DNA of 5,663 nt from a virus. Its lineage: Duplodnaviria; Heunggongvirae; Uroviricota; Caudoviricetes. The notes beneath the pieces are model-generated. The model was not told the origin of the DNA, ran no database searches, and saw only the letters and a program-made list of their open reading frames with translations. The position numbers and the translations under genes are program-made. Location of the stretch: the IMG/VR virus record IMGVR_UViG_2541047172_000012; one strand, given 5' to 3'. Every line of letters begins with the position of its first letter. Within the stretch, counting starts at the first letter, position 1. Of this stretch, positions 453 to 5,663 are shown piece after piece.

Positions 453-691
453 TTGGTGAGAATCGCAGCAACTTGTCGCGCCAATCGAGCCATGTCGTCG
501 TCAACGACCCCCCATTCAAGAACAGCAAGCAGCATTGAGAACTTTGGAATCCAGTCTCTCTTCCACCTGCTGATCTGCGACTTATCAACTCCCACAGCTT
601 CCGCTGTCTTCTCAGTTCCAAGCATTGCGATTTTGTTAAGCAACGCACTCTCGATTCGTAGAGCCTCGTTGCGTTTGTTTGCACGAACCAT
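398..691 (-). CDS. cII: Transcriptional activator CII (97 aa)
   Basis: Track ORF 398..751 contains MVRANKRNEALRIESALLNKIAMLGTEKTAEAVGVDKSQISRWKRDWIPKFSMLLAVLEWGVVDDDMARLARQVAAILTNKKRPAATERSEQIQMEF from the internal Met at 691..689, preceded by the lambda-like AAGGAAATACTTACAT leader. The upstream in-frame Met at 751 lacks an RBS. Confidence 0.95.
   Translation of the reverse strand: MVRANKRNEALRIESALLNKIAMLGTEKTAEAVGVDKSQISRWKRDWIPKFSMLLAVLEWGVVDDDMARLARQVAAILTNKKRPAATERSEQIQMEF
426..451 (+). terminator. Intrinsic terminator of oop RNA
   Basis: 7-bp GC-rich stem CGCTCGG/CCGGGCG (one G-U pair), 6-nt loop, followed by TTTTTT. Confidence 0.7.
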
Positions 692-705
692 ATGTAAGTA
701 TTTCC
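669..705 (+). promoter_or_regulatory. PRE promoter with CII-binding direct repeats
   Basis: TTGC (669-672) and TTGC (679-682) separated by 6 bp, flanking the -35 region, with a weak AAGTAT -10-like hexamer downstream. It overlaps the cII start on the opposite strand and points toward cro/cI antisense, as in lambda. Confidence 0.6.
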
Positions 706-770
706 TTAGATAACAATTGATTGAATGTATGCAAATAAATGCATACACCATAGGTGTGGTTTAATTGGAT

Positions 771-802
771 GCCCTTTTTCAGGGCTGGAATGTGTAAGAG
801 CG
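771..802 (-). promoter_or_regulatory. nutR site: boxB hairpin (771-785) and boxA (795-802), lambda type
   Basis: Reverse complement gives CGCTCTTACACATTCCA (boxA) and GCCCTGAAAAAGGGC (boxB), identical to lambda nutR as I recall. Located between cro and cII on the PR transcript. Confidence 0.85.
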
Positions 803-809
803 GGGTTAT

Positions 810-1019
<210 letters not shown>

Positions 1020-1034
1020 TTAGTACATGCAACC

Positions 1035-1063
1035 ATTATCACCGCCAGAGGTAAAGTAGTCAA
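1035..1063 (-). promoter_or_regulatory. PR promoter
   Basis: On the minus strand, -35 TTGACT (reverse complement of 1058-1063) and -10 GATAAT (reverse complement of 1035-1040), overlapping OR1/OR2 and driving cro. Confidence 0.85.
1037..1053. promoter_or_regulatory. Operator OR1
   Basis: TATCACCGCCAGAGGTA, exact match to the lambda OR1 17-mer. Confidence 0.9.
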
Positions 1064-1077
1064 CACGCGCGGTGTTA
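1061..1077. promoter_or_regulatory. Operator OR2, one central base different from recalled lambda OR2
   Basis: CAACACGCGCGGTGTTA versus lambda CAACACGCACGGTGTTA (reverse complement of TAACACCGTGCGTGTTG). Spacing to OR1 and OR3 is conserved at 7 and 6 bp. Confidence 0.85.
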
Positions 1078-1104
1078 GATATTTATCCCTTGCGGTGATA
1101 GATT
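1075..1104 (+). promoter_or_regulatory. PRM promoter giving leaderless cI mRNA
   Basis: -35 TAGATA (1075-1080) and -10 TAGATT (1099-1104), with the cI ATG at 1111 and no Shine-Dalgarno, as in lambda. Confidence 0.8.
1084..1100. promoter_or_regulatory. Operator OR3
   Basis: TATCCCTTGCGGTGATA, the reverse complement of lambda OR3 TATCACCGCAAGGGATA. Confidence 0.9.
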
Positions 1105-1107
1105 TAA

Positions 1108-1824
<717 letters not shown>

Positions 1825-2198
1825 AGAGGATAGATGGAGTTTAATGGCCATGAGTATCAAGCGGTCAAAAAGAAGTTCATCTATTCATTGAAAGCATAAG
1901 GCCATCTGAGTATATCCGTAATGATCTGGATATTGTCTATAACATCAATGACCGGACGATAGATATCGGTGAGCAGCGTCCTGTATGGCAGGGTGAGGCA
2001 GGTGAAAAAACGTCCTGCCATCAACAAGAATCAAGTGCATCCGCTCTCTGGACAGATGGAAAATTTATTGGATGCAAAAAGATATGAAATAACACCTGTA
2101 TAGCACGGAGCTTTCTCTGACCGATGCACTTGAAGTTGTTAGGGCTGACCCAGCCTGCTGTTTCTTTAGGTAAGAGAAAAGAGATTTAGGAGATGAAA

Positions 2199-2225
2199 GG
2201 TCGCAGAGGTGCGGCCTTTTTTATT
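2199..2225 (+). terminator. Intrinsic terminator closing the non-coding region downstream of cI
   Basis: 7-bp stem GGTCGCA/TGCGGCC (one G-U), GAGG tetraloop, followed by TTTTTTATT. Confidence 0.6.
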
Positions 2226-2234
2226 GAGAGTGGA

Positions 2235-2267
2235 TCTTGAACGGAAATTCTCAAGACTTGAGTCTTG
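2235..2267. promoter_or_regulatory. Overlapping inverted repeats upstream of the 173-aa gene (operator-like)
   Basis: TCTTGA-N10-TCAAGA (2235-2256) and CAAGAC-TTGA-GTCTTG (2252-2267) share an arm. A GCATGC palindrome follows at 2266-2271. Confidence 0.35.
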
Positions 2268-2293
2268 CATGCAAATCAATTCCTGGATAAACT
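2265..2293 (+). promoter_or_regulatory. Candidate sigma70 promoter for the 173-aa gene
   Basis: TTGCAT (2265-2270), 17-bp spacer, TAAACT (2288-2293). It sits just downstream of a terminator and about 30 bp upstream of a purine-rich RBS (AGAGAGAGAG) and the ATG at 2326. Confidence 0.3.
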
Positions 2294-2325
2294 CGATCTG
2301 AGTCAATAACTTAGAGAGAGAGCAA

Positions 2326-2847
2326 ATGGCAAAGTCAAACGTTAGCGTGCAGGCATTCAAGGACTTCCTTGAAGAGCTTATGTCGCTGAACATAATGAAG
2401 GAGGCCACCGCTCGAAATTTAAAAAACTCATCCGCTCGCCTCTTAACGGTAGTCCAAGAAGAGGAAATGGGTGATGTTACTCAGCTTGATGTGAATGAGC
2501 TTGCCGAGCGATACATCAACGCAACTGAGCCGAAGCCTAGCGACAGCAGCATTACTGCATATAAAAGCCGCATGGAAAGTGCAATCAAAAAGTTTGTAGC
2601 TTTCCAGTCTGGTGAAGAAATCCCATACACTCCGATTGACAAAGAATCCAGTGAGGAAAAAGATTTGACTGGCGAACCAACAAAAGTCGAAGGCAAGGCT
2701 AATGCACTTCATACCTATGATCTTCCAGTAGTTCTTCGACCTGAATCAGGGGTTACAGTAACGATTAAAGGCATTCCTAACGATATCACAAACGAAGAAG
2801 CCGAACGCATCTCTTCAATTCTGAAGGTTTACGTTCGGCCTCAATAA
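2326..2847 (+). CDS. Hypothetical acidic protein (173 aa); cargo gene at the position of lambda rexA/rexB
   Basis: Clean 173-codon ORF with a purine-rich RBS, MAKSNVSVQAFKDFLEELMSLNIMKEATARNLKNSSARLLTVVQEEEMGDVTQLDVNELAERY... No resemblance to RexA/RexB or any family I recognise; E/D-rich, no obvious HTH or hydrophobic segment. Opposite-strand ORFs overlapping it are shorter and lack signals. Confidence 0.7.
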   Translation: MAKSNVSVQAFKDFLEELMSLNIMKEATARNLKNSSARLLTVVQEEEMGDVTQLDVNELAERYINATEPKPSDSSITAYKSRMESAIKKFVAFQSGEEIPYTPIDKESSEEKDLTGEPTKVEGKANALHTYDLPVVLRPESGVTVTIKGIPNDITNEEAERISSILKVYVRPQ

Positions 2848-3020
2848 TGCAAAAGCATTCAGCACAATGTCCAACTCCCCAGTCCGACATTGATGCTGTT
2901 TAACCAGAGCCTCCAAAAGGAGCCCTTGTTAAGGTACACAATATTTGCGATGTAACCTTAGCGCGTCTGGTACATTTTTTCAAGCGGTTGTAGGGCTGCC
3001 GCCAATATGAGAAAACACAG

Positions 3021-3143
3021 ATGTCTACATACAATTTGAATGACCAATTCGATCGAGAAGTTCATGTGAATGCCTATGAACGGATAAGGCATGGAAATCT
3101 TGAACATGTGTGTGAGCATTATCGCTCAAGGCCACACCGCTAA
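3021..3143 (+). CDS. Candidate small ORF (40 aa, His/Cys-rich), or the body of a terminator-capped small RNA
   Basis: ATG at 3021 to TAA at 3141-3143 encodes MSTYNLNDQFDREVHVNAYERIRHGNLEHVCEHYRSRPHR, ending 7 nt before a strong intrinsic terminator. No convincing Shine-Dalgarno; a possible promoter (TTCAAG-18-CAATAT, 2979-3008) would make it near-leaderless. Confidence 0.25.
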   Translation: MSTYNLNDQFDREVHVNAYERIRHGNLEHVCEHYRSRPHR

Positions 3144-3150
3144 TCATCAA

Positions 3151-3179
3151 CCCGGCCTCCATGCCGGGTTTTCTTTTCC
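3151..3179 (+). terminator. Strong intrinsic terminator, positionally analogous to lambda tIMM
   Basis: Stem CCCGGC (3151-3156) / GCCGGG (3163-3168), 6-nt loop, then TTTTCTTTTCC. Confidence 0.75.
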
Positions 3180-3357
3180 TCTCGCCCAAAAAAACACATA
3201 ACCAATTGTATTTATTGGAAAATAAATAGATACAACTCACTAAACAACGCAATTCTGATCTCTCCTTACATCGCCGAGGCAATACACCCACGCTAAAAAA
3301 CAATACTATTAAATACAAAGCGTTGTAAAAAAACGCCCCGTTTTAGAACAAATTGTA

Positions 3358-3386
3358 TTGACCAAGTGAAGTACATATCGTACTAT
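3358..3386 (+). promoter_or_regulatory. PL-like promoter upstream of nutL and N
   Basis: TTGACC (3358-3363), 17-bp spacer, TACTAT (3381-3386), set in an AT-rich region about 190 bp upstream of N. Flanked by short inverted repeats (TACAAAGCGTTGTA 3314-3327, ACAAATTGT 3348-3356, AGTAC-N5-GTACT 3370-3384) but no lambda-type 17-mer operators. Confidence 0.5.
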
Positions 3387-3432
3387 TTAACCATCAGCAG
3401 GACGCTGGAAGCCAAATGGAACAGACTGGCAG

Positions 3433-3477
3433 GCTCTTTAAACAACGTCGACTCTCGACTACGTGGCTGAAAAGCCA
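3433..3477 (+). promoter_or_regulatory. nutL-like site: boxA (3433-3445) and boxB hairpin (3464-3477)
   Basis: GCTCTTTAAACAA resembles the boxA consensus (CGCTCTTTAACAA). Downstream, TGGCT-GAAA-AGCCA forms a 5-bp stem with a GAAA loop. Both lie in the leader between the promoter and N. Confidence 0.5.
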
Positions 3478-3575
3478 GATCACCCAACCACATAAGCTGT
3501 GGGATGCAATGCCGAAGCAACCGTCTCAGGAGGAGCTTCGAGATTGCATCGCCAAAGTTTATTCGGGAGGAATCT

Positions 3576-3848
3576 ATGTCCAGAAAAACAGAATTTAAAG
3601 GCACCGCAGCTTCTCGCCGTAGAGCTCGTCGCGCAAACCTGCAAAGTCAGGAGGCGATTAGCTCCGACAAACTACACAGGCCAACCCCATCACGAGTGGT
3701 CTTACAATGCAAACGCAAACCAGCAATGAGAGCAGAAGTAATAACACTGACAACGTTGACCAGAAAATATGAAGGCTCAACTTGTCTTCCAAATGTAGCT
3801 CTTTACGCGGCAGGCTACCGTAAATCCAAACAACTGACAGCAAGATGA
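3576..3848 (+). CDS. N: Antitermination protein N, P22 gene-24-like rather than lambda-like (90 aa)
   Basis: Start chosen at ATG 3576 with strong RBS GGGAGG (3565-3570); the track ORF begins at an upstream Met (3504) with no RBS. It has an N-terminal arginine-rich motif (TAASRRRARRANLQ) and a C-terminus CLPNVALYAAGYRKSKQLTAR that closely resembles the P22 N C-terminus as I recall it (LLPGVALYAAGHRKSKQITAR). Confidence 0.75.
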   Translation: MSRKTEFKGTAASRRRARRANLQSQEAISSDKLHRPTPSRVVLQCKRKPAMRAEVITLTTLTRKYEGSTCLPNVALYAAGYRKSKQLTAR

Positions 3849-3898
3849 CTTGTGTTGGTCGCCAGAAAATGAAATTAGGCAGCAAACCACTTATTTGA
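3845..3898 (+). pseudogene. Relic of a lambda/21-type N C-terminus in the +1 frame, overlapping the N stop codon
   Basis: Frame open from 3824; ATG 3845 to TGA 3898 encodes MTCVGRQKMKLGSKPLI, resembling the C-terminal residues of lambda N (ITCSGRQKIKGKSIPLI) and phage 21 N (VTCVGRQKIKLGSKPLI), both from memory. Confidence 0.45.
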
Positions 3899-3906
3899 GG
3901 TGATAT

Positions 3907-4158
3907 ATGGAATTTCATGAAAGTGCGATTTGTGATTTTCGCGCTAACGCAAATTCAGTAAAACCACAGCCAATTGCAGTTCTTTTTAAAACAATGGGTG
4001 CGTGGGCTGTTTTATGCTTCGCCGCTGACGACACTGACGCAAGAATGGCAATAGGACAAGAGATGGAGATGGACCCGACAAACGATGAATTCATAATTTA
4101 TGGCGCTCCATCTAATTACTTACTTGATACCTGCAACATTTACAACAAGGCTGCCTGA
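3907..4158 (+). CDS. Hypothetical small protein (83 aa), first gene after N in the leftward early operon
   Basis: ATG 3907 preceded by RBS GAGGTGA (3898-3904); MEFHESAICDFRANANSVKPQPIAVLFKTMGAWAVLCFAADDTDARMAIGQEMEMDPTNDEFIIYGAPSNYLLDTCNIYNKAA. It sits where lambda has ral or small orfs; I do not recognise the sequence. Confidence 0.65.
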   Translation: MEFHESAICDFRANANSVKPQPIAVLFKTMGAWAVLCFAADDTDARMAIGQEMEMDPTNDEFIIYGAPSNYLLDTCNIYNKAA

Positions 4159-4204
4159 TGGTGGCCTTTATTTTTGGCATAAACAACAGAATAAACACAG
4201 CACT

Positions 4205-4232
4205 GTGTATTCATTCCAACGAGTGAATACAC
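4205..4232. repeat. Perfect 9-bp inverted repeat with 10-bp spacer in an intergenic region
   Basis: GTGTATTCA (4205-4213) ... TGAATACAC (4224-4232). No adjacent T-tract on either strand, so it is not a typical intrinsic terminator. Confidence 0.5.
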
Positions 4233-4294
4233 GGAGCAATGTCGCTCGTAACTAAACAGGAGCCGACTTGTTCTGATTATTGGAAATCTTCTTT

Positions 4295-4320
4295 GCCCTC
4301 CAATGTGAGGGCGATTTTTT
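4295..4320 (+). terminator. Intrinsic terminator upstream of ea10
   Basis: Stem GCCCTC (4295-4300) / GAGGGC (4307-4312), 6-nt loop, then GATTTTTT. Confidence 0.65.
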
Positions 4321-4340
4321 ATCTGTGAGGATATGAACAG

Positions 4341-4709
4341 ATGTCAAACATCAAAAAATACATCATTGATTACGACTGGAAAGCATCAATAGAAATTGAA
4401 ATCGACCATGACGTAATGACAGAGGAAAAACTTCACCAGATTAATAATTTCTGGTCAGACTCTGAATACCGACTCAATAAACACGGCTCTTTATTAAATG
4501 CTGTATTAATCATGCTGGCGCAACATGCTCTGCTTATAGCAATTTCAAGCGACTTAAATGCATATGGTGTTGTGTGTGAGTTCGACTGGAATGATGGAAA
4601 TGGTCAGGAAGGATGGCCTTCAATGGATGGTAGCGAAGGAATAAGAATTACCGATATCGATACATCAGGAATATTTGATTCAGATGATATGACTATCAAG
4701 GCCGCCTGA
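4341..4709 (+). CDS. ea10: Ea10 protein (122 aa)
   Basis: MSNIKKYIIDYDWKASIEIEIDHDVMTEEKLHQINNFWSDSEYRLNKHGS... matches lambda Ea10 as I recall it, in the correct position upstream of cIII. Confidence 0.85.
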   Translation: MSNIKKYIIDYDWKASIEIEIDHDVMTEEKLHQINNFWSDSEYRLNKHGSLLNAVLIMLAQHALLIAISSDLNAYGVVCEFDWNDGNGQEGWPSMDGSEGIRITDIDTSGIFDSDDMTIKAA

Positions 4710-4732
4710 GCGCGGCGTTACCGCATACCAAT

Positions 4733-4756
4733 AACGCTTCACTCGAGGCGTTTTTC
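4733..4756 (+). terminator. Terminator-like hairpin between ea10 and cIII
   Basis: Stem AACGCTTC / GAGGCGTT (with one G-U pair) around an ACTC loop, followed by TTTTT. It may be a partial terminator or a structure affecting cIII translation. Confidence 0.4.
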
Positions 4757-4781
4757 GTTATGTATAAATAAGGAGCACACC

Positions 4782-4946
4782 ATGCAATATGCCATTGCAG
4801 GGTGGCCTGTTGCTGGCTGCCCTTCCGAATCTTTACTTGAACGAATCACCCGTAAATTACGTGACGGATGGAAACGCCTTATCGACATACTTAATCAGCC
4901 AGGAGTCCCAAAAAATGGATCAAACACTTATGGCTATCCAGACTAA
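4782..4946 (+). CDS. cIII: CIII, inhibitor of FtsH that stabilises CII (54 aa)
   Basis: RBS AGGAG (4771-4775); [54 protein letters not shown] matches lambda CIII. Below the track's length threshold, so it was found by manual translation. Confidence 0.93.
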   Translation: MQYAIAGWPVAGCPSESLLERITRKLRDGWKRLIDILNQPGVPKNGSNTYGYPD

Positions 4947-5058
4947 ATTCACTATCGCCACTTTTATTGGCGATGAAAAGATGTTTCGTGAGGCCGTCGA
5001 CGCTTATAAAAAATGGATATTAATGCTGAAACTGAGATCAAGCAAAAGCATTCACTAA
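4915..5058 (+). CDS. kil: Kil, host-killing and FtsZ-inhibiting protein (47 aa)
   Basis: Internal Met of track ORF 4789..5058: [47 protein letters not shown], with RBS AGGAG (4901-4905). It overlaps the cIII 3' end and the gam 5' end as in lambda. Confidence 0.9.
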
Positions 5059-5429
5059 CCCCCTTTCCTGTTTTCCTAATCAGCCTGGCATTTCGCGGGC
5101 GATATTTTCACAGCTATTTCAGGAGTTCAGCCATGAACGCTTATTACATTCAGGATCGTCTTGAGGCTCAGAGCTGGACGCGTCACTACCAGCAGATCGC
5201 CCGTGAAGAGAAAGAGGCAGAACTGGCAGACGACATGGGAAAAGGTCTGCCCCAGCACCTGTTTGAATCACTCTGCATCGATCATTTGCAACGCCACGGG
5301 GCCAGCAAAAAAGCCATTACCCGTGCGTTTGATGACGATGTTGAGTTTCAGGAGCGCATGGCAGAACACATCCGGTACATGGTTGAAACCATTGCTCACC
5401 ACCAGGTTGATATTGATTCAGAGGTATAA
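5013..5429 (+). CDS. gam: Gam, inhibitor of host RecBCD nuclease (138-aa long form; short form starts at 5133)
   Basis: [55 protein letters not shown]... matches lambda Gam. The internal start at 5133 (MNAYYIQ) has RBS AGGAG at 5121-5125. Confidence 0.93.
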
Positions 5430-5434
5430 AGCGG

Positions 5435-5663
5435 ATGAGTACAGCACTCGCAACGCTGGCAGGGAAGCTGGCTGAACGTGTCGGCATGGATTCTGTCGAC
5501 CCACAGGAACTGATCACCACTCTTCGCCAGACGGCATTTAAAGGTGATGCCAGCGATGCGCAGTTCATCGCATTGTTGATCGTCGCCAACCAGTACGGCC
5601 TTAATCCGTGGACGAAAGAAATTTACGCCTTCCCTGATAAGCAGAACGGCATCGTTCCGGTGG
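5435..5663 (+). CDS. bet: Bet (Red-beta) single-strand annealing protein, N-terminal 76 codons; continues past the window end
   Basis: ATG 5435 translates to MSTALATLAGKLAERVGMDSVDPQELITTLRQTAFKGDASDAQFIALLIVANQYGLNPWTKEIYAFPDKQNGIVPV, matching lambda Bet. Not in the ORF track because no stop falls within the window. Confidence 0.95.
   Translation, partial: MSTALATLAGKLAERVGMDSVDPQELITTLRQTAFKGDASDAQFIALLIVANQYGLNPWTKEIYAFPDKQNGIVPV

Follow-up and report, generated by a model that had tools for sequence, protein, structure and literature searches.

The 5,663-nucleotide stretch of DNA analysed here (the window; IMG/VR virus record IMGVR_UViG_2541047172_000012) is a lambdoid immunity region, read with the repressor gene cI on the plus strand. 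Positions 2195-3181, which lie between cI and the left operators (OL), appear from their sequence to form an autonomous, mobile two-gene prophage cassette of the 'moron' type. The main gene encodes an acidic protein of 173 amino acids (aa), which we tentatively read, at somewhat less than even likelihood, as an autoregulated DNA-binding accessory or maintenance factor of lysogeny rather than an abortive-infection effector. The predicted fold of the protein, the operator-like repeats at its promoter, its position in the immunity region, and a published failure to delete the gene all point in this direction. The locus itself is not new, as its sequence and odd genetics have already been published. 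What is new is the fold assignment, the breadth of the family, the pairing of the two genes, the borders of the cassette, and the upstream motif that its relatives share.

The cassette stands where phage lambda carries rexA and rexB. In BLAST comparisons, lambda positions 38400-37231 (the start of cII, cro, the right operator region (OR), and cI) match window positions 651-1820 with 97.8% identity, and lambda positions 35826-35708 (the rexB stop codon, the terminator t_imm, and the spacer to just before OL3) match positions 3149-3264 with 87.5% identity. Lambda homology is missing over positions 1821-3148, and these 1328 nucleotides (nt) exactly substitute the lambda cI-rexA spacer, rexA, and rexB. 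The replacement of the exclusion genes that was claimed in the original prediction is borne out by these limits, since homology stops at 1820 and resumes at 3149. The five features that it listed (two terminators, palindromes with a candidate promoter, and a larger and a smaller gene) are real and lie essentially where it had placed them. Their order of terminator, promoter, genes, and terminator agrees with the self-contained unit that it had proposed, and Salmonella-type loci align with the window from terminator to terminator, over positions 2198-3179 at 85% identity. The cargo is not unrecognized, however, because the two genes were already H0093 and H0092 of VT2-Sakai, and the first is ECs1184 of Sp5, a prophage encoding Shiga toxin 2 (Stx2).

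The 173-aa protein (2326-2847, plus strand) is variously called ECs1184, ECs_1184, H0093 (VT2-Sakai), open reading frame (ORF) 23 of Sp5, WP_001130059, and phrog_2602. The gene has 44 close clusters in Enterobacterales that share two conserved blocks and a variable linker, and it is under purifying selection. With an isoelectric point of 4.85, its product is also the acidic protein that had been expected. AlphaFold2, supplied with the family alignment, models a four-helix N-terminal domain at residues ~8-94 (predicted local distance difference test (pLDDT) ~90), a disordered acidic linker at 102-127, and a C-terminal domain at 130-165 that consists of a beta-hairpin and a helix and has a pLDDT of 90.5 when it is modelled alone. 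The modelled N-terminal fold is integrase-like and appears to be the core-binding (SAM-like) DNA-binding domain of tyrosine recombinases. Among 29 family members scanned, the Pfam model Phage_int_SAM gave 15 weak matches, all of them sub-threshold and the best with E = 7.7e-5. Five basic residues are conserved (K33, R38, R62, K80, and R82). No catalytic domain and none of the R-H-R-Y residues are present, as the protein ends after its 45-residue beta-hairpin-helix domain, and because the catalytic domain is absent it is not a recombinase.

Little else in the protein resembles a known family. No structural match was found for the C-terminal domain, and a profile search with it returned only short proteins of 35-99 aa and no fusions to known domains. 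Foldseek comparison with viral structures gave nothing at E < 0.001, and the family profile retrieved nothing above noise from the PDB sequences. No model in NCBIfam, Pfam, or PADLOC covers the family, and nothing there reached threshold. PADLOC 2.0 produced no credible match in the 29 members, its best single E value (0.0022) occurring in one member only. The earlier statement that the protein belongs to no recognizable family is partly wrong, given the integrase core-binding-like fold of the N-terminal half. Pfam, PHROG, and PADLOC give no match to Rex proteins, and Pfam, NCBIfam, and PADLOC show no recognized toxin or antitoxin domain. The protein has no enzymatic, nucleotide-binding, effector-type, or membrane part, and its highest 19-residue hydropathy of 0.72 leaves no membrane segment.

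An exhaustive profile search with a cut-off of E <= 0.001 expands the family to at least 660 clusters, which include chromosomal genes of Alphaproteobacteria. Nearly all of the best 150 of these 660 clusters are 160-210 aa long and match over nearly their full length. Many of the named distant members are alphaproteobacterial, and there the linker is basic. These alphaproteobacterial homologues are lone genes that adjoin housekeeping genes, with long upstream regions and without a conserved partner or a nearby integrase. Homologues that also lie between cI and N are found in Proteus/Morganella (73% identity), Serratia (54%), and phage SH2026Stx1 (40%). In Yersinia phage YP3, the homologue adjoins an excisionase gene, an unannotated 430-aa gene, and gin.

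A sigma-70 promoter is predicted for the cassette at positions 2265-2293 of the plus strand, with a -35 hexamer TTGCAT (2265-2270), a 17-nt spacer, and a -10 hexamer TAAACT (2288-2293). A TTGnnn-17/18-TAnnnT element located 25-35 nt 5' of the ATG is the top-scoring site in most of 18 compared loci. The position of this promoter is conserved in relatives with diverged flanks, where it reads TTGCAA-17-TAGAAT in Proteus and TTGATC-17-TAAACT in a distant group. This promoter is too weak for a generic scan, which passed over it. The palindromes that had been claimed together with the promoter at 2235-2293 are legible in the sequence: TCTTGA (2235-2240) is repeated in inverted form as TCAAGA (2251-2256), and it is followed by AAGACTTGAGTCTT (2253-2266) and TTGCATGCAA (2265-2274). 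These overlapping inverted repeats (2235-2274) extend over the -35 hexamer and are a candidate operator. The 14-mer AAGACTTGAGTCTT occurs a single time in the window, and the pattern AAGACT..AGTCTT is retained in Salmonella and Proteus relatives. A second copy of TGAGTC is part of a candidate operator half near the predicted transcription start, where GATC is followed by TGAGTCAA (2295-2306, plus strand). Within the window TGAGTCWW is present at positions 2259 and 2299 only, flanking the promoter. Of the longer forms, TGAGTCTT covers the -35 hexamer and TGAGTCAA adjoins the predicted start, and neither occurs elsewhere in the window.

Motifs were also counted in the upstream regions of 23 loci and compared with 1000 dinucleotide shuffles of the same regions. 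GA(N0-1)TCAA is observed 18 times (shuffle mean 4.7 +/- 2.1), GANTC 34 times (mean 18.9), and GATC 35 times (mean 20.2); the observed count is reached in none of the 1000 shuffles for the first two motifs and in two of them for the third. The enrichment of both GATC and GANTC in both bacterial classes is a better fit to a protein-binding motif than to a methylation-controlled promoter. Autoregulation of the 173-aa gene through these motifs would be the simplest explanation, because the protein itself is the only factor common to all of the loci that bear them. Upstream of a chromosomal Neorhizobium homologue, whose protein is ~27% identical, the palindrome CTTGAGTCAAG occurs twice, 26 nt apart (locus L027, ~4890-4925). 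These Neorhizobium copies resemble TGAGTCTT and TGAGTCAA at the window promoter.

Both terminators that had been claimed, at 2199-2225 and 3151-3179, fold far better than shuffled sequences. The first (T1; 2195-2226, plus strand) consists of a hairpin (2195-2220), built around a G+C core (2199-2205/2210-2216), and a T-run behind it; its fold of -16.4 kcal/mol (z = -3.3) is equalled in one of 200 shuffles. The second (T2; 3149-3181, plus strand) has a stem at 3149-3170 followed by a T-run and folds with -14.3 kcal/mol (z = -3.6), which none of 200 shuffles equals. T2 is the homologue of lambda t_imm and forms the right border of the cassette, and the VT2-Sakai annotators marked it as the terminator of the repressor maintenance promoter (PRM). 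The T1 hairpin GGTCGCAGARRTGCGGCC is kept almost unchanged behind otherwise unrelated cI genes in E. coli, Salmonella, Proteus, Serratia-type, and SH2026Stx1 loci, which suggests that it may serve as a recombination joint alongside its role in termination. Sites equivalent to T1 are seen in loci L053, L054, L060, L064, and L099.

The second gene of the cassette is a 40-aa ORF at positions 3021-3143 of the plus strand (H0092, phrog_21154) that is unannotated in current RefSeq records. It had been described as either a His/Cys-rich ORF or a small RNA (sRNA), and of these alternatives the coding one is upheld. Nearly all codon changes between the window and locus L093 (69% nucleotide identity) are synonymous and the indel is in frame, and the Salmonella type differs by five synonymous and two non-synonymous codon changes. 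Because the ORF is truly coding, the sRNA reading is unnecessary. An Rfam search of the complete window matched the cIII thermometer alone, with no hit in 2199-3179, and hence gives no support for an sRNA. The encoded protein has the invariant core YxRIRxGxLEHVxxHxRS, a neutral charge, and a hydrophilic composition, with a highest hydropathy of -0.84 over 15 residues. A zinc-finger reading of this ORF was rejected, as its single Cys is not invariant.

In 43 of 45 viral loci that contain this type of small ORF (type A), a member of the 173-aa family lies directly upstream, and the unit is therefore a two-gene pair. In all 18 diverse loci, the family gene is followed at a distance of 135-230 nt by an ORF of 40-60 aa, and these ORFs fall into three mutually unrelated types. 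Type A (phrog_21154) has 40 aa in the window; type B has 47 aa, is basic, and contains CxxC...CxC motifs with a weak treble-clef zinc-finger match; and type C (phrog_33859) has 57 aa and is basic. Neither Pfam nor PADLOC gives a toxin, antitoxin, or defence match for the small ORFs. Types B and C replace the 40-aa ORF in loci L053, L060, L063-L066, L068, L071, L075, L084, L086, L087, L091, and L094. Locus L098 has an intact small ORF A, and its 173-aa gene is reduced to the last 19 codons.

The two genes are separated by a 173-nt spacer (2848-3020, plus strand) that RNA folding resolves into three hairpins. Its minimum free energy of -52.2 kcal/mol (z = -3.94) is equalled in none of 200 shuffles. 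The consensus structure is kept in the divergent locus L093, where eight pairs have changed on both sides in a compensatory manner. The spacer is 91% identical to that of the Salmonella type, versus 81% for the 173-aa gene. In the last hairpin, 2975-2982 pairs with 3008-3015 and includes the Shine-Dalgarno-like GAGAAA of the small ORF. If this hairpin forms, then the ribosome-binding site of the small ORF would be occluded.

The published genetics of ECs1184 come from Mondal et al. 2016, who constructed 43 in-frame deletion mutants of MG1655 lysogenic for Sp5 (PMC5155283). Deletions of ORF23 (ECs1184) and of ORF21 (ECs1180) from this lysogen were unobtainable (PMC5155283). These authors judged that loss of either gene is apparently lethal and that both are probably needed for stable lysogeny, and they reported no conserved domain (PMC5155283). 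A 2025 study recovered ECs1184 in the RNA-associated proteome of enterohaemorrhagic E. coli Sakai from uninduced cultures, at a false discovery rate of 0.065, with an RNA-crosslinking signal no better than that of green fluorescent protein (PMC7618764). Because it was recovered in this proteome with a crosslinking signal at that level, the protein is made in culture and is not a strong RNA binder. The searched literature holds no lysogen transcript map of the cassette, and searches by RefSeq accession or neighbouring locus tags found no paper. ECs1180 has no Pfam or PADLOC match, and it is not obligately linked with the cassette, since several loci carry the cassette without it.

These observations can be assembled into a mechanism in which the cI transcript from PRM would end at T1, insulating the cassette. 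The promoter at 2265-2293, overlapped by the inverted repeats, would drive a single mRNA that comprises the 173-aa gene, the structured spacer that masks the ribosome-binding site, and the 40-aa gene, and that ends at the t_imm-type T2. The 173-aa protein would be a regulator that binds specific DNA sequences as an oligomer and represses its own promoter through the TTGA-N-TCAA or TGAGTC-type repeats. In the lysogen, it would restrain or neutralize some function that is otherwise harmful to the cell, and the 40-aa protein would be its conserved partner. If such a harmful function is held down by the protein, then this would account for the inability to delete ECs1184 from the Sp5 lysogen.

Several points weigh against this regulator reading. 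DNA binding, oligomerization, autoregulation, and the transcript are all proposals that derive from the structural model and the sequence. The Pfam matches of the N-terminal domain all lie below the curated threshold, and the acidity of the phage-borne subfamily (charge ~-8 for the whole protein, ~-3.4 for the N-terminal domain, and ~-4 for the linker) is unusual for a DNA binder. The cassette promoter matches the consensus at 7 of 12 positions, and another site in the window itself slightly outscores it. The significance of the upstream motifs is overstated because the 23 loci are partly related. The deletion failure is a negative result of one study with no stated cause, and ECs1180 failed as well. 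Nor is the gene generally required, as related prophages carry other cargo and L098 keeps only the last 19 codons.

The same cassette could instead be a lysogen-expressed module of defence or superinfection exclusion, with both proteins sensing or blocking an infecting phage as RexAB does. It occupies the rexAB slot, its signals are autonomous, its expression in the lysogen is probable, and the alternative cargo of this slot matches PADLOC candidates (PDC-M63A in L098, PDC-S43 in Proteus, and an NYN protein). A defence or anti-defence role was also what the original prediction had put forward, and it is not sustained by the 29 members scanned, none of which has a PADLOC match, or by the protein itself, which has no effector domain or membrane segment. 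Neither cassette protein nor any of the 28 further family members matches a PADLOC model, the enzymatic, nucleotide-binding, and membrane domains are all absent, a failed deletion is unlike a rexAB-type exclusion gene, and the distant homologues stand singly on chromosomes, next to housekeeping genes. Since the argument is one of location only, we regard a defence role as a minority possibility and an unlikely one. The deletion failure would also be explained if the two genes form an addiction or toxin-antitoxin-like pair, in which the 173-aa protein is an autoregulating antidote to a toxic small protein or another prophage product, so that loss of the antidote kills the lysogen. The two-gene layout, the palindromes at the promoter, the acidity of the first protein beside basic type B and C small proteins, and the linkage of the small ORF in 18 of 18 diverse loci and 43 of 45 type A loci would all be compatible with such a pair. 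However, small ORF A persists intact in L098, where the 173-aa gene is missing, and the protein encoded by ORF A is neutral, hydrophilic, only 40 aa long, and without a toxin-family match. The 173 nt of structured spacer between the genes are also unlike typical type II operons, and the alphaproteobacterial homologues have no partner ORF. On balance, we consider this arrangement quite improbable.

If the gene acts early in the lytic cycle or during establishment and plays no part once lysogeny is established, then the deletion failure would be a technical matter, such as damage to a cis element. This would agree with the weak promoter and with a deletion result that is negative and unexplained and that extends to the unrelated ECs1180. 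It agrees poorly with the isolation of the unit from both PRM and the leftward promoter (PL) by T1 and T2, with the orientation of the cassette, which faces away from any lytic promoter, with the detection of the protein in uninduced cultures, and with the 43 other mutants obtained by the same method in the same study, and we give it a small chance. A role in modulating site-specific recombination, where a free core-binding domain occupies integrase core sites and tunes excision or integration, has even less in its favour and seems very improbable. The integrase core-binding fold is the only recognizable domain of the protein, and the YP3 homologue adjoins the excisionase gene, the 430-aa gene, and gin. 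Set against this, the gene lies in the immunity region, far from int and xis, its chromosomal homologues have no integrase nearby, and altered excision would not account for lethality. A decoy for the integrase of Sp5 itself was also tried as a candidate and rejected, with no specific similarity between the two proteins (hhalign probability 1%).

Whether or not its product is a lysogeny regulator, the cassette moves among immunity types. A 100%-identical gene follows at least four types of cI in IMG/VR loci: the Sakai type, the lambda type, and two more. Loci with other cI types align with the window from ~1797 to ~3172-3272. The 39.9-kb viral contig L039 combines lambda cII, cro, and cI with the cassette, true lambda OL operators, and lambda N; the lambda immunity of this phage is coherent, with the cassette in place of rexAB. 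Among 5426 complete E. coli genomes, the cassette is found in 234, always with at least 99% identity and mostly in O157:H7. It is absent in some close relatives, and in L004-L009 an NYN gene follows the same cI instead.

The slot between cI and OL is a cargo hot spot. Besides the cassette, it holds a 285-aa NYN-domain gene, a PADLOC candidate, behind the same lambda-type cI (L004-L009, 6842-7699); a pair formed by a DUF6932 gene (PADLOC PDC-M63A) and a 309-aa gene (L098, 2441-3945); a DUF3024 gene just before the family gene in Proteus (L020, 3422-3763; PADLOC PDC-S43, E = 4e-37); and a 113-aa ORF at the same spot in phage SH2026Stx1 (L099, 2970-3311). In this survey of the cI-to-N interval, which had been put forward with the defence proposal, some of the alternative cargo matches PADLOC defence candidates, and the 173-aa family itself is left unmatched by PADLOC.

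The neighbouring genes follow the usual lambdoid order. The start of O, cII (398-691), and cro (810-1010) are on the minus strand, and OR lies between cro and cI. The cI gene (1111-1824, plus strand), which is the left neighbour and left border of the replaced interval, encodes a 237-aa repressor with a lambda-type DNA-binding domain (Pfam HTH_3 and Peptidase_S24), and this exact protein is widespread in E. coli prophages. The spacer of ~370 nt between the cI stop codon and T1 (1825-2194) includes an inverted repeat of 11 nt without mismatches (2031-2041/2123-2133), and its ORFs are all short and unconserved. It accompanies the E. coli cassette behind four cI types and is absent from the Salmonella versions. 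Outside the cassette on the right are OL operators and a PL promoter of the VT2-Sakai type (3311-3386, plus strand; TTGACC-17-TACTAT), located by transfer of the VT2-Sakai annotation. These are followed by N (3576-3848; Pfam N_peptide) and, downstream of N, the 83-aa ORF ECs1180 (3907-4158; phrog_2471), Ea10/DUF2528, and the cIII thermoregulator RNA (4769-4827), whose match to the lambda element in Rfam is clean (RF01804, 88.5 bits). The right end of the window contains cIII, kil, gam, and the start of bet. The PL leader includes a 60-aa ORF (3416-3598; RefSeq ECs_5705) that overlaps the start of N and is called in all related loci. It matches no family, and gene callers may have predicted it spuriously over the nutL region.

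The window joins two kinds of immunity region. VT2-Sakai/Sp5 and many other Shiga toxin (Stx) phages are 99.5% identical to positions 1414-5663, and lambda-immunity prophages are 99.6% identical to positions 1-1822. Lambda-type cII, cro, OR, and cI are thereby joined to a VT2-Sakai-type left arm within the shared C-terminal domain of cI (junction zone 1414-1822). The same junction recurs in a single IMG/VR contig of 6.8 kb (L050, 99.7%); the 5426 complete E. coli genomes all lack it. Such a junction could have arisen by a rare recombination event, or assembly could have joined the two parts across the 410-bp repeat. Lambda operator half-sites are present only at OR (1037, 1069, and 1092), with none at the OL of the window (3311-3386). 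In vitro, lambda CI binds the Sakai operators ~10-17x more weakly than its own OL1 (PMC10742460), and the same paper cites an earlier report of cross-immunity (PMC10742460).

The release of Shiga toxin by E. coli O157:H7 is governed by induction of Stx prophages, and the cassette is found in the immunity region of the Sakai Stx2 prophage. If the 173-aa protein keeps the lysogen alive or silent, then it would add to cI a second point of control and offer a lever on the stability of toxin phages. An extended form of the proposal, which we hold to be unlikely but worth stating, is that ECs1184 represents an undescribed, widespread class of stand-alone integrase core-binding-domain proteins. Together with its small partner, it could be a second, cI-independent prophage lock that helps to control the induction of Shiga-toxin phages in Stx and other lambdoid prophages, and its chromosomal relatives in Alphaproteobacteria could be autoregulated regulators that recognize a conserved TTGA-N-TCAA-type site. 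If the deletion failure is technical, then the cassette is one more prophage cargo unit. With the structural assignment, the conserved small partner, and the shared motif, a protein listed as 'hypothetical' for 25 years becomes the subject of a DNA-binding hypothesis that can be tested, and a family of at least 660 sequence clusters that has no curated model is defined.

Compared with known systems, the cassette is closest in position to lambda rexA-rexB. It fills the same interval from the cI stop codon to t_imm, is co-oriented with cI, and is probably expressed in the prophage. It has no sequence or fold relation to these genes, however, and no polytopic membrane protein like RexB. Whereas rexA and rexB are co-transcribed from PRM, the cassette is set off by its own T1 and its own predicted promoter, and its main gene has been reported to be non-deletable. 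In organization, it is most like the phage 'morons' described by Hendrix and colleagues, which are autonomous promoter-gene-terminator insertions in lambdoid phages and are usually dispensable for phage and lysogen. The cassette likewise places terminator, promoter, genes, and terminator between conserved neighbours, is present or absent among close relatives, and is shuffled between immunity types, but its gene is reported not to be deletable.

The protein itself differs from tyrosine recombinases (lambda Int, XerC/D, and IntI) in having neither a catalytic domain nor the RHRY residues, in its sub-threshold Pfam matches, and in the acidity of the domain within the phage subfamily. MrpR/YopR of SPbeta and SroF of phi3T are master repressors with the complete two-domain recombinase fold, whereas the 173-aa protein would have only the core-binding domain, fused to an unrelated mini-domain, and is encoded next to a classical cI. 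With type II toxin-antitoxin systems, the cassette shares a pair of small genes, palindromes at the promoter, an acidic product of the first gene whose N-terminus is putatively DNA-binding, and the failure to delete that gene. It differs from them in belonging to no recognized family, in its long structured spacer, in the small ORF that stands alone in L098, and in the chromosomal homologues that have no partner.

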